DNA of 64,000 nt from contig JAYEMH010000039.1 of assembly GCA_034717985.1 (NCBI GenBank), positions 1,784 through 65,783 on the forward strand, given 5' to 3'. The position numbers and the translations under genes were made by a program. This DNA comes from Candidatus Ratteibacteria bacterium. Its GTDB lineage: Bacteria; CAZDME01; JAYEMH01. The number at the start of each line of letters is the position of its first letter. The first letter of the stretch is position 1. The notes below the pieces were generated by a model. It searched no databases. It was not told the origin of the DNA and saw nothing but the letters and a program-made list of their open reading frames with translations. This document shows positions 1-17,361 of the stretch, one piece after another.

Positions 1-122
1 AAACGTCGACGGAATAAACATGTAAACAATCGCAAAAATAAGGTCGAATTTGATTTAATCTGTGTAATCTATTTTTTAATCTTTAAAATCAGGGGATGCT
101 GGCTTTTTCAGCAGACCCTAAA

Positions 123-160: not shown

Positions 161-259
161 AAATCGCGTAGATTTTTTTATATCCTTCTTAACTTAAGTG
201 CACTATGAAAAAAATTTCCGAAAACAAGTTTTGGGAGAATCGCCGATAGTAAATAAATA

Positions 260-472: not shown

Positions 473-517
473 GAGTTCAAGTATCAAAGAGCAAAATTCT
501 CGTTTCTCATTGAACAA

Positions 518-1807: not shown

Positions 1808-1825
1808 AGTGCACAGTTCTCCTTA

Positions 1826-1863
1826 TTTTTATGCATTATAACTGCATAAAAGCAAAAAGTCAA
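1826..1863 (-). promoter_or_regulatory. consensus promoter TTGACT-N17-TATAAT overlapped by palindrome TTTATGCAgttataaTGCATAAA, for cassette gene 518..1807
   Basis: -35 1858-1863, -10 1835-1840 (minus strand). Confidence 0.55.
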
Positions 1864-2010
1864 GATAATTATCGGGTTTTGAGGTTTTGAAATTCCGGGG
1901 TCTTAAATTCCGATAAATAGGATAAATAGCGATAAATAGGGACGGATAAATAGGGACGATAAATAGGGACACCCTATTTCTAAATAGGGCAGACACCCTA
2001 TTTCCGCTAT

Positions 2011-2040
2011 CTCAATAAATCATATCCCTTTAATTCCAGC
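2011..2040. repeat. cassette junction motif copy (CTCAA..AAATCATATCCCTTTAATTCCAGC) preceded by hairpins AAATAGGG-aca-CCCTATTT
   Basis: One of six copies at 2011-2040, 3613-3651, 5151-5181, 5962-5995, 6046-6084, 6977-7013, each 30-50 bp 3' of a cassette ORF. Confidence 0.75.
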
Positions 2041-2076
2041 CAGGAGCAAGTGTCCCCAATACCATTCGTTTTCAGC

Positions 2077-3465
2077 TCAAGTAATGAGTTTGTCCTTGTG
2101 AAATAAATATACATTTTCTTTTTTTGCTATTTTTTTCATTTCCGGGGTAAATCCAGCTTTGCTAAACAAAGAAAAATATTCCTTTCTATTCTTTTTTCCC
2201 CACTCTACTTTTTGAGACTTTTCCCTTAAGTCTTCATAGATATTGGTCCCAATAGGCTTATTAGACCATTTAACTTCACCGAAAAGAATCTCATTTGCCA
2301 GGCTATTCAATGCAACAAGATCTATTTCTGCATCCTTATTCCACCAGCGGCCATAAGTTTCAAATTTAAGATGAATTTGGTTGTTCAGAATCGCGTTCAA
2401 GAAAATTTCACCTGATATTTTTTCATAGTTTCTGGATAGAAGTTCGGGAAGCGCTTTTTTTATTCTTATTGTTACCTCATTTATTCTATTTTCTTCAAGA
2501 AGAGATCGATTTCTAAAAACAAATCTAAACCAGAAATTGAAAAAATTATCATCTAACATATAGATGCCTTTCCTGCTCTTCTCGGGTATTTTTTCAGTAA
2601 CTGGTATTTCTTTTTTCGTAATCTGAAGATTTTCCAAAATAGAAATATAACGGGACGTCGTACCCTTATCAAAGCCGGTTTCATTTATAATTTCGGAAAG
2701 TTTATGTTTCCCTAAAGACAATGCTTCCAGTATTACAAAATAGTTCCGGGGTTCTTTTAATTTTTCTCTCAATAAAAATTCAACCTCTTCATAAAGAGGT
2801 TCTCCTTTTCTTAAAATCTCCTCCTTGATAACTTCAAGATAATCTCTATGATAGAACTTATTTAAATAGAGCGGGGTACCTCCAACAATGCTGTAAACAG
2901 ACAAAATTTCGTCAAATGCTTTGCGAGGAAAAACCTCTTTCACTTCCTTAAATCTAAAAGGTTTTATCAAAAACTGGCCTGTCCTTCTGCCATATAAAGG
3001 AGCCTTATAAAAAAGGGCGGTTTTTTCCATCATCGAGATACTTGAACCTAAAAGCAGCATATAAATCTTAGACTTCTTTAGATAAAGATCCCATGCCTTT
3101 TGAAAAGTTGAAGGTATCGCCTTATCACTTTCAGCTAAATAAGGAAATTCATCTATTATAATGCCTATTTTTTCTCTTCTATTAGCTATATATTTAAAAG
3201 CTGTTTCCCAGTCCTTAAATCCCTCCTCAGGTAGAAATTCATCTTTAAAGTATTCTGCTATAGTATCAGTAAACTTCCTTAGCTGATTACGAGCAGCTAT
3301 TCTTTCACATAAAAAATAGATGTGAGGTTTATTTTTTACAAACCGGATGCTAACTTCGGTCTTACCAACCCGCCGTTTACCATAGATTATAATTAATTGG
3401 GCTTTGTGCACATCCCATTTTTCATTAAGAAATTCCAGTTCTAATTCTCTGTTTATGAATCTCAT
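2077..3465 (-). CDS. archaeal-type ATPase (Arch_ATPase/DUF234 family)
   Basis: P-loop GKRRVGKTE, Walker B IIIDEFPYL, 462 aa; a consensus promoter sits upstream. Confidence 0.65.
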   Translation of the reverse strand: MRFINRELELEFLNEKWDVHKAQLIIIYGKRRVGKTEVSIRFVKNKPHIYFLCERIAARNQLRKFTDTIAEYFKDEFLPEEGFKDWETAFKYIANRREKIGIIIDEFPYLAESDKAIPSTFQKAWDLYLKKSKIYMLLLGSSISMMEKTALFYKAPLYGRRTGQFLIKPFRFKEVKEVFPRKAFDEILSVYSIVGGTPLYLNKFYHRDYLEVIKEEILRKGEPLYEEVEFLLREKLKEPRNYFVILEALSLGKHKLSEIINETGFDKGTTSRYISILENLQITKKEIPVTEKIPEKSRKGIYMLDDNFFNFWFRFVFRNRSLLEENRINEVTIRIKKALPELLSRNYEKISGEIFLNAILNNQIHLKFETYGRWWNKDAEIDLVALNSLANEILFGEVKWSNKPIGTNIYEDLREKSQKVEWGKKNRKEYFSLFSKAGFTPEMKKIAKKENVYLFHKDKLIT

Positions 3466-3495
3466 CCTAAACTCCTTCCTGCTAATCTAATCAGT

Positions 3496-3547
3496 ATAAT
3501 TCAATTTAGACTAATCTATTTTAGACTAATCAGGACGCTTTGTCAAT
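3496..3547 (-). promoter_or_regulatory. consensus sigma70 promoter TTGACA-N17-TAAAAT with GATTAGTCTAAA direct repeats, for cassette gene 2077..3465
   Basis: -35 at 3541-3546, -10 at 3518-3523 (minus strand); direct repeats overlap the -10. Confidence 0.55.
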
Positions 3548-3612
3548 CAAAAATTCTATCTCACCTTTTTGCTGAACATACATACAGTTCCGGGGTCCAG
3601 TTCCGGGGTCAA

Positions 3613-3651
3613 GTCTCAACATTTAACAAATCATATCTCTTTAATTCCAGC
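3613..3651. repeat. cassette junction motif copy GTCTCAACATTTAACAAATCATATCTCTTTAATTCCAGC preceded by TTCCGGGGTC direct repeats
   Basis: See above. Confidence 0.75.
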
Positions 3652-3693
3652 ATACTGGTAAATTCAGGCTTCCCGAATCACTTTCTACCAAAA

Positions 3694-4872
3694 CTACACA
3701 AGTGCGCTTAAGAACTTACTGGCGCTTATAACCCGAATATTATCCTTTATGAAATCAATGTTCCCTTCTTTCACCACCTCATAGATAAAGGGAATTTTAA
3801 GTTTCTCGCCAAAATATTTTAATGACGCCGGGATATCCTTATAGGTCGCCTTAACCTCAACACAAAACCAAACCTTGTTTCCAACCGTAATTAAAAAATC
3901 AACTTCCCTCTGTTCTTTGTCTCTCAGATAATACAGTTGAGCTTTATATCCTTCTGCGTCAAAAAGAAAGTGGCAAAATTTCAAAAGATGAGAGGCAATA
4001 ATATTTTCAAACCTGACATTTTCGTCTCCAATTTCAGACCAGTCCCACAAATACAACTTGGGTTCTTTTCTCAACGACTTTATAACATTAGTTTGAAAAG
4101 GATATATTCGGAAATGATAATAGAACTGTTCTAATATATCTACCCACAAAGATACTGTCTTATGGGTAACCCCTAAGTCTTCACGTAATGAATTCAAAGA
4201 AAAAAGAGACCCGGTTTTCCCTGGCAAAAGCTCAACTAACACCTGCAGGGCTGATATATCCCTTAGATTTTCAATATCCCGAATATCATCCTTTATGACC
4301 CTGTCAATTCTGGCGTTATGCCACCGTCGCAGCGTTTTCTCGCTTTGTTTGATAAATATTTCCGGGAAGCCGCCGAATTTAAATAAACGATTAAATAATT
4401 TCTTCTGCTGTGTATTTTCATCTGAGAAAACAAGTTCTTTGAAAGGATTACAAATTATCTCCGTGCTTGATAATTCGTGCAGGGAAAGAGGATGCAGCCT
4501 ATACGGATGATACCGGCCCAGCAATGAATCTCCACCTTTCTTATACACATCCAATCGTGCGCTGCCCGTTACCAGTATCTGAAATTCCTGTTTGTGCTTG
4601 TCATATTCCCCTTTTAAATAATTCTTCCATTTTCTATATTTATGAATTTCGTCAAAAACAATCAAATCTTTATCCGCCGGGAAGCTCTCGTTAAGAATAA
4701 GCTTTCTGTCTTGTCGATTATCCCAATTTAAATAGGCATATTTACCTGGAAAAAACTTATTGCTGATTTGTTTAGCCAGAGTAGTTTTGCCAATTTGGCG
4801 GGGGCCGGAAATAAAAACCATTTTATCCTTCAAATCATCCAAAACGTACTTTTCTAAATATCGCTTAATCAT
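3694..4872 (-). CDS. AAA+ ATPase, DUF4143 family (second copy, diverged)
   Basis: Walker A GPRQIGKTT, Walker B LIVFDEIHK; same architecture as 518..1807. Confidence 0.7.
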   Translation of the reverse strand: MIKRYLEKYVLDDLKDKMVFISGPRQIGKTTLAKQISNKFFPGKYAYLNWDNRQDRKLILNESFPADKDLIVFDEIHKYRKWKNYLKGEYDKHKQEFQILVTGSARLDVYKKGGDSLLGRYHPYRLHPLSLHELSSTEIICNPFKELVFSDENTQQKKLFNRLFKFGGFPEIFIKQSEKTLRRWHNARIDRVIKDDIRDIENLRDISALQVLVELLPGKTGSLFSLNSLREDLGVTHKTVSLWVDILEQFYYHFRIYPFQTNVIKSLRKEPKLYLWDWSEIGDENVRFENIIASHLLKFCHFLFDAEGYKAQLYYLRDKEQREVDFLITVGNKVWFCVEVKATYKDIPASLKYFGEKLKIPFIYEVVKEGNIDFIKDNIRVISASKFLSALV

Positions 4873-4901
4873 AAAATACCTCCATTTATCTCCTCTTATA
4901 A

Positions 4902-4929
4902 ATTATACCATAGTATAATTTTTTGTCAA
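4902..4929 (-). promoter_or_regulatory. promoter TTGACA-N16-TATAAT overlapped by palindrome ATTATACtatgGTATAAT, for cassette gene 3694..4872
   Basis: -35 4924-4929, -10 4902-4907 (minus strand). Confidence 0.5.
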
Positions 4930-5150
4930 ACATTTTCTACTTTAGGAGAATAATCTGGTTTTCTTGGGGACATTTTTATCTCAAGAGCTGGCACTAATTT
5001 CTATATGTTCTCTTCCATTATCTTTATTCTGCTTAATATATTATGCAATAGGGCAAGAAGTTCACCGATTAAGCTTTTCTCATTGATAATTAAATAATTA
5101 AATAAATTAAATAGCAGACACCCCTAAATAGGGACACCCTATTTCCCCTA

Positions 5151-5181
5151 TCTCAACAAATCATATCCCTTTAATTCCAGC
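5151..5181. repeat. cassette junction motif copy
   Basis: Preceded by the AAATAGGGACACCCTATTT hairpin at 5123-5146. Confidence 0.75.
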
Positions 5182-5235
5182 AATACCATTCGTTTTTAAT
5201 TCAGGTATGGGGCAAAACATGTACTGACCTCTCAA

Positions 5236-5625
5236 TCAAAGTCTATCTTTGAGTTTTATTAGTATCTTGTCCATCAATTCGAAATAACCTTTTATACCTT
5301 TATAAATTTTTTGCGCAACTTCTTCCTTGTAAGTATGAGATGTATCATTCCTTCTATCAGTCATTTCCTGAAGCTCAACCGTCTCATCTTCGGTAGAATA
5401 ACCTAATGAGAAAATTTCCCGGAAACACGTTTTCGGGGAATTACCGATAACACCCTCTTTTTCTTTGAGATACTCCTTAATAAACTTCCAAAAGGCCTCA
5501 AAAGAATATTCAAAACGCTGAATGGCGGCATCCCGGATAATTATTGAAAACGGTTCGTCGAATATTTTTTTTAATGTATCTAAAGCCTTCTGCGCATCTT
5601 TATATTTCAACTTTAATCTTTCCAT
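5236..5625 (-). CDS. HEPN-domain nucleotidyltransferase substrate-binding protein (HI0074 family)
   Basis: RRNDTSH matches the HEPN Rx4-6H motif; overlaps the upstream NTase gene by 13 nt (coupled pair). Confidence 0.6.
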   Translation of the reverse strand: MERLKLKYKDAQKALDTLKKIFDEPFSIIIRDAAIQRFEYSFEAFWKFIKEYLKEKEGVIGNSPKTCFREIFSLGYSTEDETVELQEMTDRRNDTSHTYKEEVAQKIYKGIKGYFELMDKILIKLKDRL

Positions 5626-5906
5626 ACAATCACCCCTTTCATTGCCTCTTTCTTAAAAGACTCTGAAACGTCTGCAAAAGTTACGATTTCCACTTTATAA
5701 GGAATATTCAAATCTTCTATTTTCTCGTTCAGTGAAATAATCTTTTTCTTATCAATATCCTCATAAGGAATAAGCCCGATGTCTACATCAGAGGTAGGAT
5801 GGTTATCTCCTCTGGCGCGCGAGCCAAAAAGCACTATCTTTACTCTTTCATCTTTTAATGTGTTTAACACTAATGCTTTTAATTTTGCTAAATACCTGTT
5901 TTCCAC
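5613..5906 (-). CDS. minimal nucleotidyltransferase (HI0073/MntA-like)
   Basis: GSRARGDNHPTSDVDIGL: GS...DxD pol-beta NTase signature. Confidence 0.65.
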   Translation of the reverse strand: MENRYLAKLKALVLNTLKDERVKIVLFGSRARGDNHPTSDVDIGLIPYEDIDKKKIISLNEKIEDLNIPYKVEIVTFADVSESFKKEAMKGVIVWKD

Positions 5907-5961
5907 AATGATATTCTCCTTATTACATTCCGCAATTCCGGGGTCACAATTCCGGGGTCAA

Positions 5962-6084
5962 GTCTCAACATTTAACAAATTATACTTTTTAATTCTTCTT
6001 CGCTCGGGATTCCCTTCGGTCACTTTGTCGGCTTAATCACTGCAGGTCTCAACATTTAACAAACCATATTCCTTTATTTCCAGC
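5962..6084. repeat. two tandem cassette junction motif copies with no cargo between them
   Basis: 5962-5995 and 6046-6084, each preceded by TTCCGGGGTC-type or hairpin sequence. Confidence 0.7.
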
Positions 6085-6115
6085 AAGGGGTTAAATATCA
6101 AAAGTTGCCAACTTC

Positions 6116-6532
6116 CTATAAAAATCTCTCAGTTATCTTAGTTAATATCATTTGTATATCGCCTTTCCCTTTAGTAAAAATAGAATATACCACATTTTTA
6201 TTAAGAGCTATATACTCATGCCCGACGATGTTTCGAAACCCAATCATTTTTTTCAATAATTCAAAATCATTACTGTCTAATATGCCTTTATCACCAAGCA
6301 TCTTTGCCGCTTCATAAGCCGTCTGCGGAAATCCATACCCTTCGTCCACCACTATATGCTGAATAATATCTATTAAGTGGTTTACTATCTGAAAAAGATT
6401 GTATTCGATGACGTCCTGAGTCTTCCCATCTTTTAAAAAATCCTCATAAGAAAGTCCACCATAGGCAGAAATTCGTTGAAAATGTTCCTCTATTTGCTTT
6501 ATTCTGCTCACTATAACGTCTTTATCCACCAT
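6116..6532 (-). CDS. hepT: HepT/DUF86 HEPN toxin
   Basis: RNIVGHEY HEPN motif near C-terminus; overlaps upstream mntA-like gene. Confidence 0.65.
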   Translation of the reverse strand: MVDKDVIVSRIKQIEEHFQRISAYGGLSYEDFLKDGKTQDVIEYNLFQIVNHLIDIIQHIVVDEGYGFPQTAYEAAKMLGDKGILDSNDFELLKKMIGFRNIVGHEYIALNKNVVYSIFTKGKGDIQMILTKITERFL

Positions 6533-6914
6533 AGCTATACCTCCTTTTGACTCTTGATATCTTCAATTCTCTTAAAGTGCGTGCGTCGTCATATGAATAG
6601 TAATTTCTGAAATAATCCCTTTTAAGATTCTCCTGCTTGTTAACCAAAAGCGGCTGGCCATGGGAAAATGCCTTTAAAACAAGTTCAGGGGGAGACTCAT
6701 TGGCCATAACTATATCTATCTTTCTTTTCAAAACCAGCGCTAATTCTGCGGTTAAATCATTTTTCTCAGGCGCATCTAAATTCCCCCCGATTAAAATATC
6801 TACATCACTTTCCCGAAGGGGTGTTTTAAGAGCAGAGCCAAACATAAAGGCATAATCAATCTTTTTGAATTTAGACAGAATTTTTCTGGCTTCTTCGATA
6901 TATTTTTCAGTCAT
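6522..6914 (-). CDS. mntA: MntA-type nucleotidyltransferase antitoxin
   Basis: FGSALKTPLRESDVDILI NTase motif; partner of adjacent HepT. Confidence 0.65.
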   Translation of the reverse strand: MTEKYIEEARKILSKFKKIDYAFMFGSALKTPLRESDVDILIGGNLDAPEKNDLTAELALVLKRKIDIVMANESPPELVLKAFSHGQPLLVNKQENLKRDYFRNYYSYDDARTLRELKISRVKRRYSYGG

Positions 6915-6957
6915 AATAAATTAATTTCCCTTCTCCGCTTCCAAAGAAGTTCCGGGA

Positions 6958-7878
6958 TCAAAAATTCCGGGGTCTGGTCTCAACATTTAACAAATTATAC
7001 CCTTTTATTATACTGCCGCAAACCATCTGGACCATATCGCTAAATTCTCCCATATCGCCTTTCCCTAAAGCAAGATAGTATTTATGGCGGTCATCTATCT
7101 GAATTATGGCCGGCGGGTAGCCTTTACTCAACAACTGGGTGATTAGAATCAAGCGGCCTACCCGGCCGTTTCCATCAAAAAAGGGATGGATGGCTTCAAA
7201 CTCATAATGGTCATTTGCTGCTTTACCAACAATATCCTTACCGTACCGATTGACATTGGATACAAACTTTTTCATCTTTATCGGAACCATCTGGGCTGAG
7301 GGAAGCGCCTTCTCGGTATTGGTAAGATTAACATAACCGGTCCTATATTTTCCCGGAAGCTTATTGTTGAAATTATACATCACTATAGAATGAAGCTTTA
7401 AGATATATTCTTCGTCAATTTTAAAGTTGGGTTTTATTCGCTCAAAGATAAATTCCAGGGCGTTTCTGTGATTTACTGCCTCTAAAACCTCAAAAAGATT
7501 TTTGCCTTTCACCTTTTCACCCTTAAATGCCTTCTCTGTCTCCCGGCGGGTCATTCGGTTCCCTTCAATGGCGTTGGAATTATAGGTCATCTCGAGACAG
7601 AATTTCTCCTGAATGGTTTTATTGCTTTTTAAGATTTTTATCGGGTTGCCCAGGTCATTTTTGAACCGGCGGATATACTCTCTTAAATCAACATGCTCTT
7701 TAAACAATTCGTCAATTTTATGAACTCGGGCCGGATGCGGTTTAATCCCCTTATCCAGCCAGCGGTAAACTGTTTTATAAGTAACCTCCATGAGTCTGGC
7801 CAATTCAGATCTGGATATCTTAGTCTGCTCAACGATTTTCCTTAACTTCTCGTTATCGGCAATTATTGCCTTTTTCAT
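6958..7878 (-). CDS. Fic/Doc family AMPylation-type protein with N-terminal HTH
   Basis: Canonical Fic motif [13 protein letters not shown]; N-terminal [23 protein letters not shown]; C-terminal residues run into the cassette junction motif. Confidence 0.8.
6977..7013. repeat. cassette junction motif copy overlapping the 3' end of the Fic gene
   Basis: The Fic ORF C-terminus ...GYNLLNVET is encoded by the motif. Confidence 0.7.
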
Positions 7879-7892
7879 TTCCCGCCTTTGTC

Positions 7893-7911
7893 AATAGGAC
7901 ATATGTCCTAT
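7893..7911. promoter_or_regulatory. perfect 18-bp palindrome ATAGGACATATGTCCTAT (likely operator) upstream of HTH-Fic gene
   Basis: Perfect inverted repeat 15 bp upstream of the Fic start; half-site TATGTCCTATA repeated at 7937-7947. Confidence 0.5.
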
Positions 7912-8041: not shown

Positions 8042-9181
8042 TTACTTATCGGTTGCTTTCTTCATAATTTCAAAGAATTGGCTGACATCTCTTATATCAA
8101 AAGCAACATCTTTGTTACTAACCAGAATTCCATCAGCCGTATCTATAGCCGGATTAAAACCGTGCATTCCCTGAGGGACATTATTACTCATAAAACTGGG
8201 GCTTATCAGGCATCCGGGATTCATCAGAAAAATTATTTCTCCATATCTTCTATCCGGGAAATATGCCCGCCAGTTTTTCAATTCTTCATCATTTAAAATC
8301 CTGCCCTGCCGGTTTTTCTTGAGCAGTTCAATAACGGCTGATTTCGTTTGTTCATTAAAAAACCAGAACCGGGCCATAGTGGAATCATACATTGCTAAAT
8401 AATCCTGCGGCATTTTAAAATTCAGTTTATCTATCTCCTTTTTTAAATCAATAGTTGAGTCAGTCGGTGTCATCCCGTGGTCGGAAAAAATATAGAGATT
8501 TACCTCTTTATATTTGTTGCCGGCAATTTTGAAAACCTGCTTTATTTTTTCCTCGTACGAATCGATAATTTCATTGACCTGGTTTTTCTCCTTACAGAAT
8601 TTATGTAACGCTCTATCTATGCCGGCTGAATAAAGAAAATAGACAGGGATGTCTTCTCTCTTTATTTTTTCGCCGACAATCCGAAAAAGTTCCGCATCAG
8701 CGGTGGTATAATTAAAACAGGCATATTTAATGCCTCTCGCCTTCCATACATCAAATATAGACTGGCAGTTGTCAAATCCTCCCGGCTCATAGATGCTTTT
8801 CCTCTCGCAAAGCTCAAAATAAGGCAGTAATTCAACCGGCACCACATAAGTCTCAAAATAGCCGGTGTAACCGGCTTTTTTCTGGCTGATTACCTCAATA
8901 ATCTTTCTTCCAAGACGGCTGTTCAGGCATTTCTTGGGGAGCCATCGGATATACTTAATCCAGCCGAACAAAACACTATTCGGGTTATAATGAAACAAGG
9001 ACCAGTGCTTATGCTCTTCAGGATATTTTCCGGTAACAATAGACGGCAAAATAGCGCTTGAATAGCCCAACAAGCTCTTTACCGGTCTTTTGGTCTTGGC
9101 TATCCCATCCAAAAACGGCCGGTTCTTAATATAAGTCCACCCCAACGCATCAATCAATATAAATATATTTACCTTTTCCAT
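8042..9181 (-). CDS. alkaline-phosphatase-superfamily enzyme, nucleotide pyrophosphatase/phosphodiesterase (NPP)-like
   Basis: ILIDALGW and LPSIVTGKYPEEHKHW resemble NPP/PF01663 metal-ligand and nucleophile regions. Confidence 0.5.
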   Translation of the reverse strand: MEKVNIFILIDALGWTYIKNRPFLDGIAKTKRPVKSLLGYSSAILPSIVTGKYPEEHKHWSLFHYNPNSVLFGWIKYIRWLPKKCLNSRLGRKIIEVISQKKAGYTGYFETYVVPVELLPYFELCERKSIYEPGGFDNCQSIFDVWKARGIKYACFNYTTADAELFRIVGEKIKREDIPVYFLYSAGIDRALHKFCKEKNQVNEIIDSYEEKIKQVFKIAGNKYKEVNLYIFSDHGMTPTDSTIDLKKEIDKLNFKMPQDYLAMYDSTMARFWFFNEQTKSAVIELLKKNRQGRILNDEELKNWRAYFPDRRYGEIIFLMNPGCLISPSFMSNNVPQGMHGFNPAIDTADGILVSNKDVAFDIRDVSQFFEIMKKATDK

Positions 9182-9219
9182 CTGTGTAATCTGCGCCTTT
9201 TAATCAGTGTAATCTGTGT

Positions 9220-10521
9220 TTACTTTTTAGCAAATTTCTCCCAATTATAAACAACAATCTCTCTTAAATCATTCCAATCCAATTTCTTCTTCCTATATTC
9301 CCTCGGAATCACCGGAAGATGCCGTAGCACAAAATCCATCTTCTTTTTTTTACTGTGGACTATGGACTGCCGACTGTCGACCATACAATCATAGTTTACA
9401 TAAACTCCCATCCCGCACATCCATGCCAACATTTTCGGCGACCCTTTAAAAATCAATCTCACCGCCCGAAATAACGAAAAATTTCCGCTTTTCTCCTGAT
9501 ATAAAATCAACTTACACCAGCCTTTAATCTTATATTTTAGCCTTTCTCTTTTTAAATTTAACTTCGCCAGCTCTCTGTAGTCTGCAATCTGTGGTCTGTG
9601 GTCTGTGGACTGTCGACTGCCTGCCCTGAGCGAAGTCGAAGGGTGGACTATTTGAAACTTCCCGCTCTCCCACAGCCAGATATCTTTATAATAATTTCTT
9701 AGTTTTTCCCATTCTTTCAATACTTCTTTGCGGCTTTTAAATAACAAATCCTCTTTCGGATTCAATTTAAAATCCATCCATTTCCTAATCTTTTCCATTA
9801 AAGGGGAGGAGGATGGTATCGGGGTGTAATCAAGCCGGTTCATTTGGGCCAACATATTTTTATAAAGCGGTTCATATTTGCCTTCGGCAATTAAAATAGA
9901 AGAGGCAAGATTAACATAGCCCTTACAAATTTGGTAGGTTTGCGTGGGCATTATCCCCTTCTTATCTCCAAATATTTCTTTTAATTGCTCTAAGGCCCGG
10001 TTAAAAATAACCACCATTGATTCTTCCTTTTTGATATCATCCCTTTTATAATCAGGGACTACATCTAAAATCTTCCGGTTTCCCCATACCACCTTGCCGT
10101 AGTTCTTTAATTCGTAGGTAAAAGCGGTTGGGGGCATTTTTGTTAAAGACTTTTCTAAAAAAAGACTTAAATCAACTTCAAGATCAAATTCTTCTTCTTT
10201 AAGCTTCCTTGAAACATTTATGCTGATTTGGTTCGGTTTATCTCTTAACATCCGATAATCTGCTTCTTTAGTTAATACAACTATGAATTCCGAATCGCTT
10301 AAAAATACCGGCCGATTATTTCTGTCAATATATACCGTTCCTTCTCCTTTGGAGAAACTGCCGATTAATATGACTGATTCTATATTCTGCCCGGATATAT
10401 TTTCAACGATAACCTCACAAACGTTTTTTAAAAAGTCTTGCACAACAAAATCATACGTCTTTATATTTAAGAATTTGTCTTTTAAAGATGTTTTTTCAGT
10501 TGCGGCTTTATTTTCTGCCAT
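9220..10521 (-). CDS. hypothetical protein, possible pol-beta-like nucleotidyltransferase domain; contains in-frame dispersed-repeat insertions
   Basis: LIGSFSKGEGTV...LSDSEF weakly resembles a GS...DxE NTase signature; two copies of the GTGGACT-type repeat inside the ORF translate in frame; 5' end overlaps udk. Confidence 0.3.
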   Translation of the reverse strand: MAENKAATEKTSLKDKFLNIKTYDFVVQDFLKNVCEVIVENISGQNIESVILIGSFSKGEGTVYIDRNNRPVFLSDSEFIVVLTKEADYRMLRDKPNQISINVSRKLKEEEFDLEVDLSLFLEKSLTKMPPTAFTYELKNYGKVVWGNRKILDVVPDYKRDDIKKEESMVVIFNRALEQLKEIFGDKKGIMPTQTYQICKGYVNLASSILIAEGKYEPLYKNMLAQMNRLDYTPIPSSSPLMEKIRKWMDFKLNPKEDLLFKSRKEVLKEWEKLRNYYKDIWLWESGKFQIVHPSTSLRAGSRQSTDHRPQIADYRELAKLNLKRERLKYKIKGWCKLILYQEKSGNFSLFRAVRLIFKGSPKMLAWMCGMGVYVNYDCMVDSRQSIVHSKKKKMDFVLRHLPVIPREYRKKKLDWNDLREIVVYNWEKFAKK

Positions 10522-11120
10522 GATTCCTCTATTGGTTTAATCCCGGAGACAATTATATCGGCAAATTGCCGCGTGGGTTCAATATGCTTAAAATGCATCG
10601 GTAAGACCGTAGCCTGATACTGCTTTTTGACTGATTCTTCGGTTCTCCCCCGCTCCTTTATATCCCGGCTGAGCCTTCGTTGAAAGCGCGCCTCCGGCGG
10701 GACCTCAACATAAATTTTTAAATCCATCAATGAACGAAGCTCCTTCTCGGCCAGAACCAGTATTCCTTCAAGAATAAGAAAATCCCCGGGGATAAGATTT
10801 TTGCCCGGCTCCTTCACTCTGGTATGGGTTTTGAAATCATAAATCGCTATTTGGACCGCCTTTCCGGTTTTAATCTTCTTTAGGTGGCTAACCAGTAAAC
10901 TCAGGTCAAAAGCCTCCGGCTCATCAAAATTCAGTTTTTCCCGGTCTTTTAATTCAAGCAGGATTCTGTCTTTATAATAAAAATCCAGAGGTATTACATC
11001 GCATCTATGACCCCCTAATTTATCCTTCAAGGCATAAGCTAAAGTGCTTTTTCCGGAGCCGGTGCCGCCGGCAATGCCAATTATTAACGGTTTAGTCATT
11101 TGGCTTCTTTTTCCAGCCAT
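10482..11120 (-). CDS. udk: uridine kinase
   Basis: IIGIAGGTGSGKSTLA P-loop and overall Udk/PRK family match; real start may be internal M (MTKPL, ~11099), overlapping the upstream HTH ORF stop as ATGA. Confidence 0.75.
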   Translation of the reverse strand: MAGKRSQMTKPLIIGIAGGTGSGKSTLAYALKDKLGGHRCDVIPLDFYYKDRILLELKDREKLNFDEPEAFDLSLLVSHLKKIKTGKAVQIAIYDFKTHTRVKEPGKNLIPGDFLILEGILVLAEKELRSLMDLKIYVEVPPEARFQRRLSRDIKERGRTEESVKKQYQATVLPMHFKHIEPTRQFADIIVSGIKPIEESWQKIKPQLKKHL

Positions 11121-11266
11121 TTGTCAATTTGTTCTTTTTTGAAGCGAATGGAACGTCCCACCCTGACGCAAGGAATGTCTCCTTCCTTAACCTTCTTGTA
11201 AACGGTCAAGGGATTGAGCTGCATATACTCAGCCAGCTCCTTGGTGGTCATTAATTTACTGTTCAT
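11096..11266 (-). CDS. small HTH_17 (excisionase/AlpA/MerR-type) DNA-binding protein, 56 aa (not in ORF track)
   Basis: Own translation MNSKLMTTKELAEYMQLNPLTVYKKVKEGDIPCVRVGRSIRFKKEQIDKWLEKEAK; sits behind a palindromic promoter. Confidence 0.5.
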   Translation of the reverse strand: MNSKLMTTKELAEYMQLNPLTVYKKVKEGDIPCVRVGRSIRFKKEQIDKWLEKEAK

Positions 11267-11294
11267 AAACCGGCTCCTTTCTTAACTTAAACTA

Positions 11295-11335
11295 AAAAAG
11301 AGTATACCATATCCGGTATACTCCTGTCAAATTTA
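11295..11335 (-). promoter_or_regulatory. sigma70-like promoter TTGACA-N17-TATACT embedded in palindrome AGTATACC..GGTATACT
   Basis: Read on minus strand: TTGACAggagtataccggatatgGTATACT; a near-identical module is at 123-160. Confidence 0.45.
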
Positions 11336-11361
11336 GTTTATTCTTTTATGCTTTTTTATAC

Positions 11362-12192
11362 TTACAAATATTTATGAATGTATTCGGGAATGTGGTATTC
11401 TACGTTAGAAAGGACATAGCCGATAACCTTGCCTTTGGCCTGCTGAATCAGAAACTGGGCGTGCTGGATGACTTCCAATCGGGTAGATTCGGCCTTGATA
11501 ACCAAAATTATGCCCTCAGCCAGCGGGGCCAGCACCTGCCCGTCGGTTACGGAAATTAATGGCGGGACATCCAGAATCAGGTGGTCATAGCTTCCCTTTA
11601 AGTAATTGAGAAGCTCTTTCATTTTTGCCTGTCCTAATAATTCGGCCGGGTTGGAGGGTTTGGTTCCGGAGGCAATAACCGAAAGGCCGGAAATCCTGCT
11701 CTTTTGAATAACCCCGTCAATTTCTGAGTTTCCGCTTAATACCCCGGCCAATCCCACCTCAAGAGGGAGATTCATAATTTTATTGATTTGACCTTTTCTT
11801 AAATCGGCATCAATCAGTAAAACATTTTTATGTGAATCCCGGGCTAAAGTAACGGCCAGGTTTATGGCGGTGAGAGTCTTGCCTTCCCCGGCCTGACTGC
11901 TGGTTAGAATTACCGTTTTCGGAGGCGCTTCCGGTTTACTGGCAAAAAGATGGGTGCGCAGAATCCGATATTGTTCGGAAACCGGCGAATTGGGGGCGTA
12001 ATAAGCGACTACGCGGGGGTCAATACCGGTATCATCCTTTTTTTCGGCAATATAACTCAAGCCGGAAGGAGTTTTAAACTGGGCAAAAAATGCCTTTAAA
12101 GCGGCCAGACGGGAAGAAGCCGCCCCTTTAGCCGGCCGTTCCTCTTTTTGCCTGGCTTTCTTGAGAATTTCGCTTATTCTGTCTTCGTTCAT
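11362..12192 (-). CDS. capsular/EPS tyrosine autokinase (BY-kinase, CpsD/CapB-like)
   Basis: Walker A TSSQAGEGKTLTAINLA, Walker B LLIDADL, separate cytoplasmic kinase as in Gram-positive Wzc systems. Confidence 0.8.
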   Translation of the reverse strand: MNEDRISEILKKARQKEERPAKGAASSRLAALKAFFAQFKTPSGLSYIAEKKDDTGIDPRVVAYYAPNSPVSEQYRILRTHLFASKPEAPPKTVILTSSQAGEGKTLTAINLAVTLARDSHKNVLLIDADLRKGQINKIMNLPLEVGLAGVLSGNSEIDGVIQKSRISGLSVIASGTKPSNPAELLGQAKMKELLNYLKGSYDHLILDVPPLISVTDGQVLAPLAEGIILVIKAESTRLEVIQHAQFLIQQAKGKVIGYVLSNVEYHIPEYIHKYL

Positions 12193-12202
12193 TTAGGAAC
12201 CT

Positions 12203-13732
12203 TTAAGTCAATATTTTACTTAAAATGACAACGACAATAATCGCAAAAAAGATTAAACCCACCACAGTTAATAAAAGTCCCTGTTTGAGCCGCTGGGACT
12301 GAATCTCCCGCGGGGTAAAGATGCGGGGAATGGAAGCCAAAACCGGCAAATCCAGCAGGACCTTGGCATCTTCTATACTGCTGATAGAATGGTCGGTAAA
12401 CTCCCGGACAAAAACAGCCGCAAATCCGAGAAGGGTTCCCACAAACAGCCCTAAAAAAGAAATCTTTATTTTATTAGGCTTAATCGGTTTAAGAGACAGG
12501 CGGGCTTCGTTTAAAACTTTAAACTTGGTTCCTTTTTCCGAGGTCTCCAGCCGCTGGGAAATCTTGGCCGCCTCTAAACGCTGTAAAAGCATACTATAAA
12601 TACCCTCATTTACCCGGGTATCGCGGGTTAATTCGGCTAATTGCTGCTCCTGGGCGGGGATGCTTTGCACCCGGGCTTGATAATCCTCTTCCAGGGCTTT
12701 CAGGGCTTGCTGGCGGGACTCTAAGGAATCAATCTTTAGTTCCACAGTGCGAAACTGCTGTTCCAGCTCCTGATAGACCGGGTTAAGGGCCGAGGTTTCT
12801 TCGCTAATCGTCTTTTCTTTTTCCAGGGTAATCTGCGTTTCAATATCATCAATTTCCCGGCGCAATTCCTGAACCAGGGGGTGGGTTTCCCTGGCATCAA
12901 CCATCAGGGTATTAAGCTGCATCTTTAAACCCACCAAATGCTCGGTTAACTGGGCCACCAGGGGATTCTGAATGCGGGTTACCTCGGCAATAACTATCTG
13001 CTCTTCCCCGCTGAGCTGCCTTTCTAAAAGTCTTTTGGTCCGCATCGCATCTTCCAGGTCTAAGTTTACCTTCAGAAGTTCGGACTGGAAATCTACCAGC
13101 CGGCCCAGGTTAACGTTTAGCTCCCCTGGTAGTTCGGCCTGGTATTTCTCCTTAAATTCCTTAAGGGCCCTCTCTGAACCCTCCAGCTTTTTCTTGTAAA
13201 TTGCCAGCTGGTTTTCAATAAATTGGATGGCCGAGGAGGCCTCTTCGGTTATAGACTGGATATTTCTTTCAATAAAGATATTGGTTAAGACAGCGGCAAC
13301 CTGCTGGACCTGCCTGGGATTCTCCCCGAGATAGGATATCTGGATGATATCGTGCCCTTTCATATCTACCTTGACTTTTTTCCGGATACCTAAAAGGAGA
13401 TTTTCAAATTCCGGCTGGGACTTGACTTTCTCAGCCAGGCCCACTTTCTTGACCAGCTCTACCAGACTGTTCCAGCTGAGAATCTCTTCGGTCAGGGCAT
13501 TTAAGCGTTCCTTGACTGCCGTAGAGACAGCTAAATCGCCGATTAAAGGACTGATAATTCTCTCCTCGGTTACCAATATAGTGGTATAAGAGTGATAAAC
13601 CCTGGGCAGGAGAAAACTACCTAAGGTGGCGGTGGCAAAAACGGTGATAAAGGGGATGATAAAGAGCCAGCGGCGGCGAAAAATCACCTGAACATAATCT
13701 TTTAAGCTGACTTTCATCTGGGTAATGGGCAT
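12203..13732 (-). CDS. polysaccharide chain-length determinant (Wzz/GumC/Wzc N-terminal domain) protein
   Basis: N- and C-terminal TM segments flanking long coiled-coil periplasmic region; adjacent to BY-kinase. Confidence 0.7.
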   Translation of the reverse strand: MPITQMKVSLKDYVQVIFRRRWLFIIPFITVFATATLGSFLLPRVYHSYTTILVTEERIISPLIGDLAVSTAVKERLNALTEEILSWNSLVELVKKVGLAEKVKSQPEFENLLLGIRKKVKVDMKGHDIIQISYLGENPRQVQQVAAVLTNIFIERNIQSITEEASSAIQFIENQLAIYKKKLEGSERALKEFKEKYQAELPGELNVNLGRLVDFQSELLKVNLDLEDAMRTKRLLERQLSGEEQIVIAEVTRIQNPLVAQLTEHLVGLKMQLNTLMVDARETHPLVQELRREIDDIETQITLEKEKTISEETSALNPVYQELEQQFRTVELKIDSLESRQQALKALEEDYQARVQSIPAQEQQLAELTRDTRVNEGIYSMLLQRLEAAKISQRLETSEKGTKFKVLNEARLSLKPIKPNKIKISFLGLFVGTLLGFAAVFVREFTDHSISSIEDAKVLLDLPVLASIPRIFTPREIQSQRLKQGLLLTVVGLIFFAIIVVVILSKILT

Positions 13733-13748
13733 AGAAGGCGGCCTTTAG

Positions 13749-14618
13749 TTAATATATATCCTGTATATCGTTGATGGCAGTGGCTCTCTGGAGAGGATTA
13801 AGAAGCTGGTCGAGAAATATACCTAATTTTGAGATTACCGTCGAGCGGACGTAAACAATCTCTCCCGGCTTTATAATAAGATTGTCTTCCATTTTTCCCC
13901 GGTAGAGCAGGTCATATAATTTGACGGTCTTTTTCGGGATATTAGGATCCGGGCTGAAGATATAGGCAAAGCGTAAAGATGCCCCGCGGGTCGGCATGCC
14001 GGATGCGGTAATGGCGTCTCTCACGGTCATCTTCTTTCCCTGGGTAGAATATCTTCCCGGCCGGGCCACGGCGCCAATCACATAAATAAACTGGCTGTTA
14101 TATTCAATAATTCTGACATCAACGCTCGGCTTTTCAATAAAGCCAGATAAAAAGGCCGCCAGTTTATCTCTTAGCTGAAATTTGCTTAAGCCTTCGGCTT
14201 TTATCGGGTCTAAATAGGGCAGGCAGACATAACCGTTCGGTTCAATGCGAAAATCTCCCGAAAACTCCGGGTGGCGCAAAACCGAAACCCGGATAATATC
14301 ATCCGGCCCCAGGGAATAACTGTCATTTTTTACCGCCTTAACTTCGGCAGAATCTTTGTCCCTTTCTTCAACAACCGGCAGTTCTATCACTTCTTCTTCA
14401 ATCAGCGGCAATTCCACTTCAATTTCACCCGCAGACTCCTCCGGCTCCGGATAAACCCGTTCTGTTTTGAGACGGCTTTCTTTTTCTTCAAATTGTTTCA
14501 CCACTCTATAACTGGCAAAGACAGAGGTGGAAAGAAGGAAAAGAGCGGTTAGAGAAGCTATAACGTATATAGAACGTTGATGGAATGTCATTATCGGCAC
14601 CTTTGGTTTAAAGTTCAT
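13749..14618 (-). CDS. polysaccharide export protein (Wza-like, SLBB domain)
   Basis: Signal peptide, PGRY and IKPGEIVYV motifs typical of Wza/KpsD Poly_export+SLBB. Confidence 0.7.
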   Translation of the reverse strand: MNFKPKVPIMTFHQRSIYVIASLTALFLLSTSVFASYRVVKQFEEKESRLKTERVYPEPEESAGEIEVELPLIEEEVIELPVVEERDKDSAEVKAVKNDSYSLGPDDIIRVSVLRHPEFSGDFRIEPNGYVCLPYLDPIKAEGLSKFQLRDKLAAFLSGFIEKPSVDVRIIEYNSQFIYVIGAVARPGRYSTQGKKMTVRDAITASGMPTRGASLRFAYIFSPDPNIPKKTVKLYDLLYRGKMEDNLIIKPGEIVYVRSTVISKLGIFLDQLLNPLQRATAINDIQDIY

Positions 14619-14676
14619 TTAGTATAAATTATAGCACAGAAAATCTCTGAAGTAAAGCCAAAATTGACTGCGGCAG

Positions 14677-16671
14677 CTAAGCCATACGGAGCGGGTCAAC
14701 ATCAACCGATATGTTAATTTTACTTCCCGCTGAAAAATCCCGCAAAACACCGGTAAAAACATCCTGCAGTTTTTTTAAATCTTTTGCTTTTAAGGTTATC
14801 TGCCGGCAATATTTTCCTTTGATTTTTGAATAGGGGGAGGAAAACGGCCCTAAAATTTCGAAATGTTTGTGTTTTCCGGCTTCTTTCAGTTTTAAAAAAA
14901 GACGATTGGAATTTTTCTTGACACTATTTTCATCTTTCCCTCGTACGGTTATATTCGTAAAATGGCTGAAGGGAGGATAGGTAAGCTCCCGGCGAAATTT
15001 TAATTCCTCACGGTAGAATGCCCGGTAATCATGATTTTTTACCGCCATAAGGCTAAAATGGTCAGGATGATAAGTTTGAATAATAACCCGGCCTTTTTTT
15101 CCCATCTGACCGGTTATCCGACTCAATAGCTGGAAGTTTTTTTCTCCGGAGCGAAAATCCGGCAAATTAAGAGTAACATCAGCCGATATAACACCAACCA
15201 GGGTGGCCCGGGGAAAACCCCGGTCTTTGGCAACCATTTGTGTACCAATGAGAAAATCACTATCTCCGGCCTCAAATTTCCTCAGGAGGTCTCGGCGGGC
15301 ATTTTCCCGCCGGACAGAATCGGTATCCATTCGAATAACCCGGGCTCCGCTAAATTTTCTGTTAACTGCCTCCTCTACCTTTTGTGTCCCTAAGCCCGTG
15401 TAGCGAATATATGAGCTGAAACATTGGGGGCAGACCGAGGGCGGAGACTGGCGATAGCCGCAATAATGACAATGCGCCAAACCGTCGTCCTGATGAAAAA
15501 TTAATGACACATTACAATCGGGACAACGCAAAACAAACCCGCATTGCCGGCATAGAAGAGCGGTGGCAAAACCCCGCCGATTTAAAAAGAGGATTATTCC
15601 CTCCCGATTTTTCATCCTTTCCCGGATTGCCTCTTCTAAGGACGGAGAAATAATCCTATACCCGCTCCTTACCCGGGTCATATCGACAATTTGCACCTCA
15701 CAGGGAGGCGTTTTATCGAACCTTTCCGGTAAAACAGCCATCTTGTATTTTTTTCTCTCGGCCTGATAAAAAGTTTCTAAAGATGGGGCGGCCGAACTTA
15801 AAATAACCAGGGCCCGATTCATTCGCGCCCGCTGAAGGGCCGCTTCCCGGGCATGATATTTCGGGTCATCACTTTGTTTGTACGAACCGTCATCTTCATC
15901 AAAAATAATAATCATTCCCAACTTATTGAAGGGGGCGAATATTGCCGAGCGGGCACCGATTACAATATCTGTTTCGCCTTTTTTTATCTTTTGCCACTGC
16001 TCATAATGCTCCCGCCGGGGAAGCCCGCTGTGCAGAACTCCCGCCCGGCGGCCATATTGCTTAACCAGCCTTTTGAAAATCCGGGGGATTTTTGAAACTT
16101 CCGGGACTAAAATAATAACCTGCTTCTCCATTTTCAGGCAACAATCTATCGCCTGGAGGCAAACTTCAGTCTTTCCGCTCCCGACAGCTCCAAAAAGCAG
16201 CAAAACTTCAAACAAACCTTTCTCTAATGTGTTTTTAATTAAATTCAAGGCCTTCGCTTGCGGCCGGTTTGGAATATGTTTAGGAAAAGCTGCTTTAGCG
16301 GAAAGAGAAGCTGCCTTTTTCCTTTCCCTTTTCGGGGCTCCCTTTTTTACGGCGGCCGGAACGGCTTCAAATAAAGCCTTTCCCCGGGAACAAAAATAAT
16401 ACCGGCTTATCCAGCCGGCTAAGCGGAATATCTCTTGATTTAACAGCGGCTCATCATCCAAAACCTGAAATATTTCTTTTATTTTTTCCTCAGGAATATC
16501 GGGCCGGTCGGTAAGCCCGACAATAAAACCCGGGAGCGTCTTTTTACCGAAGGGCACGCTTACTCTTTTTCCGATAACAGCTCTATCTTTCAGTTCCCGG
16601 GGAATACGGTAATGAAACTCTTTATTGATGGGTAAATCGAAGACAATTCCGGCGTAGGTTTTATTGCTCAT
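14677..16671 (-). CDS. priA: primosomal protein N' (replication restart helicase)
   Basis: GSGKTEV Walker A, DEDDGSY (DExx box), Cys4 zinc-binding insertion CRQCGF..CPDC..CHYCG. Confidence 0.85.
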   Translation of the reverse strand: MSNKTYAGIVFDLPINKEFHYRIPRELKDRAVIGKRVSVPFGKKTLPGFIVGLTDRPDIPEEKIKEIFQVLDDEPLLNQEIFRLAGWISRYYFCSRGKALFEAVPAAVKKGAPKRERKKAASLSAKAAFPKHIPNRPQAKALNLIKNTLEKGLFEVLLLFGAVGSGKTEVCLQAIDCCLKMEKQVIILVPEVSKIPRIFKRLVKQYGRRAGVLHSGLPRREHYEQWQKIKKGETDIVIGARSAIFAPFNKLGMIIIFDEDDGSYKQSDDPKYHAREAALQRARMNRALVILSSAAPSLETFYQAERKKYKMAVLPERFDKTPPCEVQIVDMTRVRSGYRIISPSLEEAIRERMKNREGIILFLNRRGFATALLCRQCGFVLRCPDCNVSLIFHQDDGLAHCHYCGYRQSPPSVCPQCFSSYIRYTGLGTQKVEEAVNRKFSGARVIRMDTDSVRRENARRDLLRKFEAGDSDFLIGTQMVAKDRGFPRATLVGVISADVTLNLPDFRSGEKNFQLLSRITGQMGKKGRVIIQTYHPDHFSLMAVKNHDYRAFYREELKFRRELTYPPFSHFTNITVRGKDENSVKKNSNRLFLKLKEAGKHKHFEILGPFSSPYSKIKGKYCRQITLKAKDLKKLQDVFTGVLRDFSAGSKINISVDVDPLRMA

Positions 16672-16674
16672 ATG

Positions 16675-17340
16675 TTAAATTTTGTCATACTCTTTCTTAA
16701 GTTTTTTCATATCCTCCCAAACCAAACGTTTATCGCCCGGATTACGCAAAAGATAGGCTGGATGATAGGTAACCAAAAGCTTCATGCCTCTCAAATCAAA
16801 CCACTGTCCCCGCAAAATACCGATTCTTTCCTGAGAATTTAGCAGGGTCTGGGCGGCAAATCTTCCCAAAGCACAAATTAACTTCGGCTTCATTACCTCC
16901 ACCTGCTCCCAGAGAATCTGCTGGCAGGTAGAAATTTCCTGTGGTTCCGGATCGCGATTATTAGGCGGGCGGCATTTCAGGATATTGGTAATATAAATGT
17001 CGGCCCTTTGCAGGCCGATGGCCGCCAGGATTTTATCAAGGAGCTTACCGGCCCGGCCCACAAAAGGATAACCCTGCAAGTCCTCTTCTCTGCCCGGCGC
17101 TTCTCCGACAAAAACCAGTTTAGCCCGGGCATTCCCCTCACCAAAAACCAGATGTTTCCTGTCTCGTCCTAAACTGCACCGCTGGCAATCGGCATATTTA
17201 TCTTTCAGGTCTTTAAGGCTGGCCTTTTTCTCTGCCTTTTTAAATTTATTCATTGAAAAATCCCCCTGTTGGGCACAAATATATTCCCGGGTTAATTTAA
17301 TTAAATCGCCTAATTCCTTCTTTAATTCTTGACGGTTCAT
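16675..17340 (-). CDS. uracil-DNA glycosylase, family 4
   Basis: GEAPGREEDLQGYPFVGRAGKLLD signature of family-4 UDG. Confidence 0.8.
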   Translation of the reverse strand: MNRQELKKELGDLIKLTREYICAQQGDFSMNKFKKAEKKASLKDLKDKYADCQRCSLGRDRKHLVFGEGNARAKLVFVGEAPGREEDLQGYPFVGRAGKLLDKILAAIGLQRADIYITNILKCRPPNNRDPEPQEISTCQQILWEQVEVMKPKLICALGRFAAQTLLNSQERIGILRGQWFDLRGMKLLVTYHPAYLLRNPGDKRLVWEDMKKLKKEYDKI

Positions 17341-17361
17341 ATAAGGGAATTGGTGTTCGGG

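Follow-up and report, generated by a model that had tools for sequence, protein, structure and literature searches.

Introduction

Exopolysaccharide (EPS) loci of the XrtA/PEP-CTERM type occur widely among bacteria of soil, sediment and groundwater, and to our knowledge the polymers that they specify are chemically almost unknown. Sets of enzymes that decorate glycans are already a known kind. The LicA/LicC/LicD proteins comprise a kinase, a nucleotidyltransferase (NTase) and a phospho-group transferase that are encoded together and decorate a surface glycan, and the aminoglycoside O-nucleotidyltransferases move a nucleoside monophosphate (NMP) onto a sugar hydroxyl. Here we describe an unannotated example, of unproven chemistry, in a 64,000-nucleotide stretch of contig JAYEMH010000039.1 from a Candidatus Ratteibacteria bacterium (hereafter the window; G+C content 41%). 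It consists of three minus-strand genes designated U (10482–11120), X (9220–10521) and N (8042–9181). X and N are the gene pair singled out in a first-pass annotation of the window, which missed that the neighbouring uridine kinase gene (udk), here U, belongs to the same conserved module.

Results

U, the 3' end of which shares 40 nt with the start of X, encodes a uridine kinase homologue of 212 residues. X encodes a 433-residue protein of an unannotated family with a pol-beta-type NTase fold and a large C-terminal helical domain, and N encodes a 379-residue metallo-phosphodiesterase or phosphotransferase of the nucleotide pyrophosphatase/phosphodiesterase (NPP) type within the alkaline phosphatase superfamily. 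The spacer between X and N (9172–9216) contains a 23-nt tandem repeat with heptamer-like GTAATCTG units inside. When one genome per GTDB species was scanned by means of a 10-sequence alignment and gene content was assessed by six-frame hidden Markov model (HMM) scans, 42 X loci were obtained from about ten phyla, spanning Omnitrophota, Desantisbacteria, Acidobacteriota, Methylomirabilota/Rokubacteria, Nitrospirae, Planctomycetota, Binataceae, Spirochaetota and Proteobacteria. N was present near X in 37 of the 42 and adjacent to it in 21; a udk-like gene was found within the X flank in 23 and directly upstream of X in 18; and all three genes were contiguous, in the order U-X-N, in 15. N comes after X in each of the three close relatives, the two genes overlapping as ATGA in one of them, and the same order was observed in Desulfogranum marinum and in L008, a contig of a metagenome-assembled genome (MAG) from ENA/NCBI where udk, X and a fusion of N to a family 4 glycosyltransferase (GT4) are contiguous. 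These data demonstrate that U-X-N is a conserved module with X as its middle gene.

The module is embedded in Wzx/Wzy-dependent, XrtA/PEP-CTERM-type EPS loci of many phyla. The 120 genes neighbouring X loci included 24 glycosyltransferases of the GT1/GT4 type and 15 of the GT2 type, 12 Wzy proteins, six Wzx proteins and five XrtA-type deacetylases with DUF3473. X-N is typically followed by a GT4 gene, the best match of which is the XrtA-system stp2 family at a score under the cut-off of that model. In a rokubacterial locus (L032) the gene order is chain-length determinant, pepcterm ATPase (TIGR03015, 311 bits, under the cut-off of 324.5), tyrosine kinase, XrtA deacetylase (TIGR03006, 332 bits against a cut-off of 276), glycosyltransferase, U-X-N, an stp2-like GT4 and a Wzx::exosortase fusion in which the Pfam exosortase domain is present. 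In the window the XrtA-system marker beside the module is a polysaccharide chain-length determinant encoded upstream of udk (12203–13732, minus strand; TIGR03007, 350.3 bits against a cut-off of 278.85). It is flanked by a polysaccharide-biosynthesis tyrosine autokinase in the same operon as X (11362–12192, minus strand; TIGR01007, 154.6 bits against a cut-off of 108) and by a polysaccharide export protein (13749–14618, minus strand) with its best match to the XrtA/PEP-CTERM export family TIGR03027 at 82 bits, under the cut-off of 180. The locus therefore resembles XrtA/PEP-CTERM EPS loci in its TIGR03007 gene and, in related loci, in the XrtA-system genes that surround U-X-N; it differs from them in that the NCBIfam XrtA-system models do not recognise U, X or N and that no exosortase was found in the window.

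The protein identical to X is on record as a hypothetical protein from a Candidatus Ratteibacteria MAG, and X gave no match to Pfam, NCBIfam (none at E ≤ 1) or PADLOC models. An exhaustive profile search recovered 1175 cluster representatives (50% identity) at E ≤ 1e-3, mostly of about 400 residues; members that carry a name in their source are all 'hypothetical protein' and lack Pfam domains. In an alignment of 74 members, G54, E60, D76 and R175 are invariant and S55, K/R58, E137, G142, G147, N174, E178, Y196 and K200 are at least 90% conserved, with the same degree of conservation for E78 in the closer 10-sequence alignment. The family consensus LTGSxARGEG...D-x-E-F is the pol-beta NTase signature. 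Its hG[GS] motif is represented in X by LIGS at residues 52–55, modelled as strand 47–53 followed by helix 54–57, and its [DE]h[DE]h motif by D76-S77-E78-F at the start of strand 77–83. The GS..DxE signature pointed out at first pass corresponds to G54-S55 and D76-S77-E78.

An AlphaFold2 model of X, generated with the 74 family sequences, was of high quality (predicted local distance difference test, pLDDT, 88.2; predicted template modelling score, pTM, 0.88), and all 20 Foldseek matches in the PDB at E ≤ 1e-3 were NTases, namely HalB, AAD(9) and ANT(4')/KNTase. The lowest E-value, 6e-6, was obtained with HalB (PDB 9dbj, 9dbh), for which template modelling (TM) scores were 0.23–0.25 by query length and 0.39–0.45 by target length; AAD(9) (6xxq) gave a TM-score of 0.55 by target length with a root-mean-square deviation of 6.0, and 1kan and 6nmk matched at E of about 2e-4. 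AadA followed at E 3.4e-3, with GlnE and CCA/poly(A) polymerases further down. Sequence profiles gave fainter signals: five of the 74 family members weakly match DUF294 (two members), NTP_transf_2, SMODS or Polbeta, and the best NTase in a sequence-profile search of the PDB with X was a marginal, MNT-like match (E 0.049). The conserved signature, the confident model and the uniformly NTase fold matches bear out the NTase fold that had been suggested for the 433-residue protein, and the model predicts X to be a pol-beta-superfamily NTase-fold enzyme with a two-domain build like that of the aminoglycoside NTases. As in ANT(4')/KNTase, AAD(9)/ANT(9) and AadA, which are the best fold matches over the full architecture, a pol-beta NTase domain with GS...DxE precedes a helical domain. 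X differs in being only 11–14% identical to these enzymes with no HMM match, in being about 180 residues longer, with a beta-hairpin insertion that separates GS from DxE and a far larger helical domain, and in its context, which is EPS biosynthesis rather than antibiotic resistance.

N scores 65.6 bits (E 7.8e-18) on the Pfam Phosphodiest model (PF01663), which has a cut-off of 23, and its residues 6–342 cover profile positions 2–341 of 342. D11, S41, H193, D234, H235 and H340 do not vary among 51 homologues, and the conservation of D189 is at least 90%. The metal site is the intact bimetal site of the alkaline phosphatase superfamily, with the nucleophilic residue a Ser rather than a Thr; S41 lies at the start of helix 41–50. 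The AlphaFold2 model (pLDDT 95.2) matched ENPP5, Xac NPP, ENPP4, ENPP6 and ENPP7 with E-values from 2e-16 to 3e-14 and TM-scores of 0.67–0.69. Sequence and model together indicate that N is a bona fide enzyme of the NPP/alkaline phosphatase superfamily with predicted phosphodiesterase/pyrophosphatase activity, in agreement with the family assigned to 8042–9181 at first pass. N shares with Xanthomonas NPP and ENPP4/5/6/7 the six metal ligands, the nucleophile position, the whole-length PF01663 match and the fold. It differs from them in Ser41, in a sequence identity of 13–16%, in a predicted cytoplasmic location (N starts directly with strand 1 and therefore probably has no signal peptide) and in being linked, sometimes fused, to GT4 glycosyltransferases. 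The N family comprises more than 2850 matches, and GT4 fusions were seen in P0161, in L008 (10001–11710, 569 residues) and in L011 (approximately 9215–11647, an open reading frame (ORF) of about 810 residues). N was also considered as a PglZ protein and rejected as such, Phosphodiest being its sole Pfam match at E ≤ 0.1 with no match to the PglZ model or in PADLOC.

X and N had tentatively been likened to a nucleotide second-messenger synthase and hydrolase. As a signalling or defence pair, X would make a cyclic or linear oligonucleotide in the manner of a CD-NTase or HalB and N would degrade the product. Hailong HalB, an oligodeoxyadenylate synthase that pairs with the HalA ion channel (PMC13434031), is the best PDB fold match of X and has the same NTase core; one of the 74 relatives matches SMODS (E 1.1e-5); NPP1, an enzyme that degrades cyclic GMP-AMP, is represented among the fold matches of N (PDB 6ael); and an island of toxin-antitoxin and Fic genes adjoins the locus. 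Set against this, HalB is only about 217 residues long and its TM-scores to X are low, the CD-NTase CdnC (6u7b, 6p8v) is a marginal fold match (E about 0.5–0.85, TM < 0.25), X has no SMODS match, PADLOC was negative for both X and N, and no gene for HalA, a Cap protein, another effector or a cyclic-nucleotide receptor was found by the locus. The conserved neighbours in the 42 loci are instead glycosyltransferases, Wzx, Wzy and XrtA-system genes across about ten phyla. The synthase/hydrolase interpretation of X and N is not sustained by these data and appears very doubtful indeed. Two specific assignments of X were rejected on the same grounds: membership of the CD-NTases of cyclic oligonucleotide-based antiphage signalling systems (CBASS), given the lack of a SMODS or PADLOC match, the CdnC TM-scores and the lack of Cap or effector neighbours, and membership of Hailong, given no adjacent HalA gene and no PADLOC match.

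A regulatory nucleotidylylation cycle, in which X, acting like GlnE or GlnD, would AMPylate or UMPylate an EPS-machinery protein and N would take the nucleotide off again, is consistent with the presence of GlnE among the fold matches of X, with the two DUF294-matching family members and with the tyrosine autokinase, a usual regulatory target, in the same operon. We regard it as very unlikely, however, because the tight coupling of N to GT4, including fusion, points to metabolism rather than signalling and the linkage to udk would go unexplained.

U matches Pfam PRK (E 7.9e-38) and scores 225.6 bits against the cut-off of 180 of the NCBIfam uridine kinase model NF004018. This equivalog cut-off was passed by all nine module-linked udk homologues (U and eight from other loci), whilst TIGR00235 was passed by only one of the nine, U itself scoring 204.6 against 220.3. 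A non-nucleoside substrate is therefore not indicated for the kinase.

Taking gene structure and genomic context together, the best explanation, to which we give somewhat better than even chances, is that U-X-N is a glycan-decoration module acting by a nucleotide-dependent phosphodiester step. In the scheme that we propose, X would move an NMP, probably uridine or cytidine monophosphate, from the nucleoside triphosphate to a sugar hydroxyl of the repeat unit, as the ANT enzymes do on aminoglycoside sugars; this step is suggested by analogy, because the ANT enzymes are the best full-length structural matches. N, with its Ser41 nucleophile and bimetal site, would then process the sugar-phosphate-nucleoside diester such that a phosphate or a phosphodiester-linked substituent stays on the glycan and the nucleoside is released, and U would re-phosphorylate the released nucleoside. 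Of the schemes considered, this appears to be the only one found that gives all three genes a role. The chemistry is put forward as a hypothesis; gene structure, folds and genomic association are results.

The main rival is a series of kinase, activating NTase and phosphotransferase like LicA/LicC/LicD. U would phosphorylate a small ribose-like alcohol, X would make the nucleoside diphosphate derivative or act in a LicD-like manner, and N would transfer the phospho-substituent to the glycan through covalent Ser41, like EptA or LtaS. In its favour, the genes for the three enzyme classes are tightly coupled and stand in the order that such a route would require, the alkaline phosphatase superfamily includes phospho-group transferases, LicD/fukutin proteins are phosphotransferases with an NTase fold, and N is fused to GT4 in some genomes. 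This rival is nevertheless improbable: all nine kinases score above the curated uridine kinase equivalog cut-off, X matches neither LicD nor a cytidylyltransferase, and pol-beta NTases normally use hydroxyl rather than phosphate acceptors. By HMM, none of U, X and N is homologous to its Lic counterpart, and the kinase here is a uridine kinase homologue. The regulatory and second-messenger readings, together with the phase-variation reading considered below, are weaker than this one.

Several observations weigh against a nucleotide-dependent decoration step carried out by the three proteins. Canonical NPPs release a 5'-NMP and not a nucleoside, so that the second step would need an unusual leaving group, and udk could be there simply to supply UTP for UDP-sugar synthesis. 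The roles of X, N and U in the module are predicted from fold, family and context. No sequence model names X, which has no match to a curated NTase sequence model, and its third catalytic carboxylate has more than one candidate, namely E115/D117 on strand 116–122, variable in the family, and the conserved E137. The 42 loci were picked with a peptide pattern from X and are phylogenetically clumped, about 16 being from Rokubacteria/Methylomirabilota; udk was detected in just 23 of them; and in the closest relative (L001) X-N is preceded by an LPG_synthase_TM gene and has neither udk nor EPS genes in its vicinity. In the window no glycosyltransferase, Wzx, Wzy or exosortase was found adjoining the module, and a search of six-frame ORFs with phmmer, using the exosortase and Wzx halves of the L032 fusion, gave no match to either half there, this being a single-sequence search of low sensitivity.

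X contains two copies of a dispersed repeat, and the first-pass annotation had raised the possibility that the gene is a recent fusion or a pseudogene. The repeat unit is a tandem heptamer, ACTRTGG on the plus strand, which the coding strand reads as AGTCCAC, AGACCAC or AGTCGAC. Site 1 (9574–9651, minus strand; codons 291–316) consists of a heptamer tract (9574–9624), which holds three perfect tandem TCTGTGG units (9588–9608), together with a 27-nt motif and TGGACTAT; site 2 (9346–9393, minus strand; codons 377–392) contains a heptamer tract at 9352–9381. The repeats are real and beyond chance, since patterns of 22–27 nt had 2–4 matches in the window against none in 100 shuffles, and seven tracts with a periodicity of lag 7 were detected against 0–3 for lags 5, 6 and 8–10. 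The coordinates given previously were slightly off, the tract of site 2 running from 9352 to 9381 and site 1 from 9574 to 9651. As had been noted, the repeats are read through in frame without stops and the two peptides named as spanning them, SLRAGSRQSTDHRPQ and DSRQSIVHSK, are correct. The repeats are stop-free because none of the reading frames of (AGTCCAC)n contains a stop codon, selection being needed only for a length divisible by three.

X is not a fusion or pseudogene, because its orthologues are collinear, the sequence downstream of the repeats is under purifying selection and the protein forms a single confident fold. The orthologues P0002 (76% identity, 411 residues) and P0003 (51%, 394 residues) are full-length and collinear with X from N to C terminus; the sequence on either side of each repeat site is strongly conserved, as is the C-terminal VVYNWEKFAKK (YNWEKFAKK invariant). 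The identical P0002 protein is encoded in three independent assemblies, and the family representatives of about 400 residues, more than 1000 in number, reach across both sites. In a Nei-Gojobori comparison of X with the 76% orthologue, the ratio of nonsynonymous to synonymous divergence (dN/dS) was 0.28 before site 1, 1.8 at site 1, 0.11 between the sites, 0.71 at site 2 and 0.15 after it. The model of X is confident except for residues 1–14, residues 292–306 and the loop block at site 2; pLDDT falls below 50 at residues 292–294 and 296–306 in site 1, and averages 64 over a 10-residue block spanning the site-2 loop. Repeats within the coding sequence, derivation of the window from a MAG and a 17–18-residue insertion at site 1 that occurs in no other family member could all suggest a pseudogene, a two-gene fusion or an assembly chimera made by the repeats, and to this we attach next to no probability given the evidence above. 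Fusion and pseudogene are refuted, whilst the 27-nt insertion alone could be an assembly error. These data show that 9220–10521 is one intact, translated gene. As a separate observation, synonymous divergence (dS) between X and its counterpart in L001 (10001–11236) was uneven, at 0.30 over codons 23–290 and 0.9–1.2 over codons 317–433, which may reflect a recombination breakpoint near repeat site 1.

The insertion at site 1 is unique to the window protein in the wider alignment, with a shorter one in P0002, and site 2 falls in a loop of family-wide variable length. P0002 has heptamers at the same two codon positions with a different tract length, its site 1 being shorter by exactly 27 nt, and the block missing there is the 27-nt motif (9617–9643, plus strand; TGCCTGCCCTGAGCGAAGTCGAAGGG-type). 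A lineage-specific heptamer array occupies the two sites, and site 1 has in addition gained 27 nt by a recent insertion; the motif appears to be an insertion of exactly nine codons into an older heptamer tract. Together they encode two disordered surface loops, in frame and evolving neutrally, and are tolerated inside a real protein. The closest precedent is in-frame insertion of Rickettsia palindromic elements and other miniature inverted-repeat transposable elements in genes (PMC10969869), which likewise places a short intergenic-type repeat in frame at a tolerant surface site of an enzyme gene. The Rickettsia elements differ in being palindromes of about 150 bp, as against 30–78 nt of tandem heptamers plus a 27-nt motif here, and the in-gene copies of X are single arms without a hairpin. 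A mini-hairpin had been proposed within the repeat; its sequence, GAGCGAAGTCGAAGGG, is present inside the 27-nt motif, but the stem is only 4 bp and the region folds no better than shuffles. Neither copy within X showed folding in excess of shuffled sequences (z +0.38 for the region of the proposed hairpin and -0.91).

Slippage by 7 nt in the heptamer tract would shift the frame, and X could on this account be phase-variable with EPS decoration switched off. Surface-glycan modification genes are classic phase-variable loci, and Haemophilus licA phase-varies through intragenic CAAT repeats. The three perfect TCTGTGG units and the differing tract length between orthologues would fit such a mechanism. 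The perfect units number only three, however, the orthologous tract is degenerate and in frame, the P0002 protein is identical in its three assemblies, and the difference between the orthologues is insertion of the 27-nt motif and not a change in unit number. Phase variation is, on this evidence, most unlikely.

Heptamer arrays (ACTRTGG, ACTATTC and TTAGTCG) were also observed in the intergenic spacers of an all-minus-strand gene array in the window, at 25085–25176, 30785–30885, 33050–33130, 36043–36100, 36236–36269, 37685–37765 and 56227–56269, with further copies of the X repeat at 30785–30885, 37685–37765 and 56227–56269. Most of these arrays consist of inverted pairs and form long hairpins on the transcribed strand (z -3.6 to -5.9, with -5.9 at 25085–25176, -4.4 at 30785–30885 and -3.6 at 37685–37765), and they may be terminators or RNA-stabilising elements.

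The 27-nt motif is cosmopolitan. Its 20-mer CCCTGAGCGAAGTCGAAGGG occurs exactly in at least 120 unrelated metagenome contigs and 44 viral contigs, and six plasmids contain exact or near-exact partial matches. In the motif loci examined (L051–L130 and L171–L214) the conserved core is only about 27 nt, gaGCcTGCCCTGAGCGAAGTCGAAGGG, with flanks unrelated between contigs and the motif sometimes present as inverted or tandem partial copies. The flanks are weakly enriched for complementarity (16 versus 5 copies with at least 9 of 10 pairs). No Rfam family matched the motif, a literature search with a 15-mer of it found no paper, and there was no general link to heptamer arrays or to GIY-YIG genes, a single copy out of 173 being adjacent to one of the latter. 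In L058 a copy is located 77 nt upstream of a GIY-YIG-like ORF, and a GIY-YIG gene covers one of the plasmid matches.

Just upstream of udk, a small helix-turn-helix (HTH) protein of the excisionase family is encoded at 11096–11266 on the minus strand; this HTH_17 gene may encode a regulator of the module. An HTH_17 gene is also found ahead of udk in L004 (957–1136; a 51% relative), with a bAvd/23S_rRNA_IVP gene in between. ValRS-UDG-PriA synteny is common to the window (11096–20040) and L001 (3503–9999). The interval between PriA and X-N is occupied in the window by the genes for the export protein, chain-length determinant, tyrosine kinase, HTH protein and udk, and in L001 by the single LPG_synthase_TM (flippase-like) gene. 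X-N is a stable unit, the upstream partners of which have been exchanged between the two. On the other side, window positions 1–7900, described at first pass as a cassette array, contain genes spaced by two families of direct repeats of about 50 nt (1992–2040, 5133–5181 and 6036–6084; 3599–3650, 5948–5999 and 6963–7014). The genes encode three AAA_14/DUF4143 or ATPase_2/DUF234 ATPases, an NTase_sub_bind/HepT-like protein, an MNT-HepT pair and a Fic protein; at its 3' end the Fic ORF runs into one of the repeat copies.

Discussion

Until now the genes of the module have carried the labels hypothetical protein, alkaline phosphatase family and uridine kinase. Read together, they point to a specific chemical step in XrtA/PEP-CTERM-type EPS biosynthesis, probably a phosphodiester-type decoration that uses a pyrimidine nucleotide. 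The repeats in X illustrate how intergenic-type repeats can colonise tolerant loops of an enzyme without damage, and they caution against labelling such ORFs as pseudogenes.

The NTase-fold family to which X belongs comprises more than 1000 clusters and has no Pfam or NCBIfam model. Literature searches that combined udk, NTase fold, NPP, EPS and PEP-CTERM/exosortase found no paper describing the module. A more far-reaching proposal is that Udk-X-NPP constitutes an undescribed three-enzyme pathway of XrtA/PEP-CTERM-type EPS loci, in which a phosphate-linked substituent would be installed via a transiently nucleotidylylated glycan, with a sugar of the polysaccharide as the substrate of the pol-beta NTase, an intracellular NPP would resolve the diester and a dedicated uridine kinase would recycle the nucleoside. 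In this full form we consider the pathway possible and rather unlikely; if it is true, X would found a new functional class of NTase-fold enzymes.

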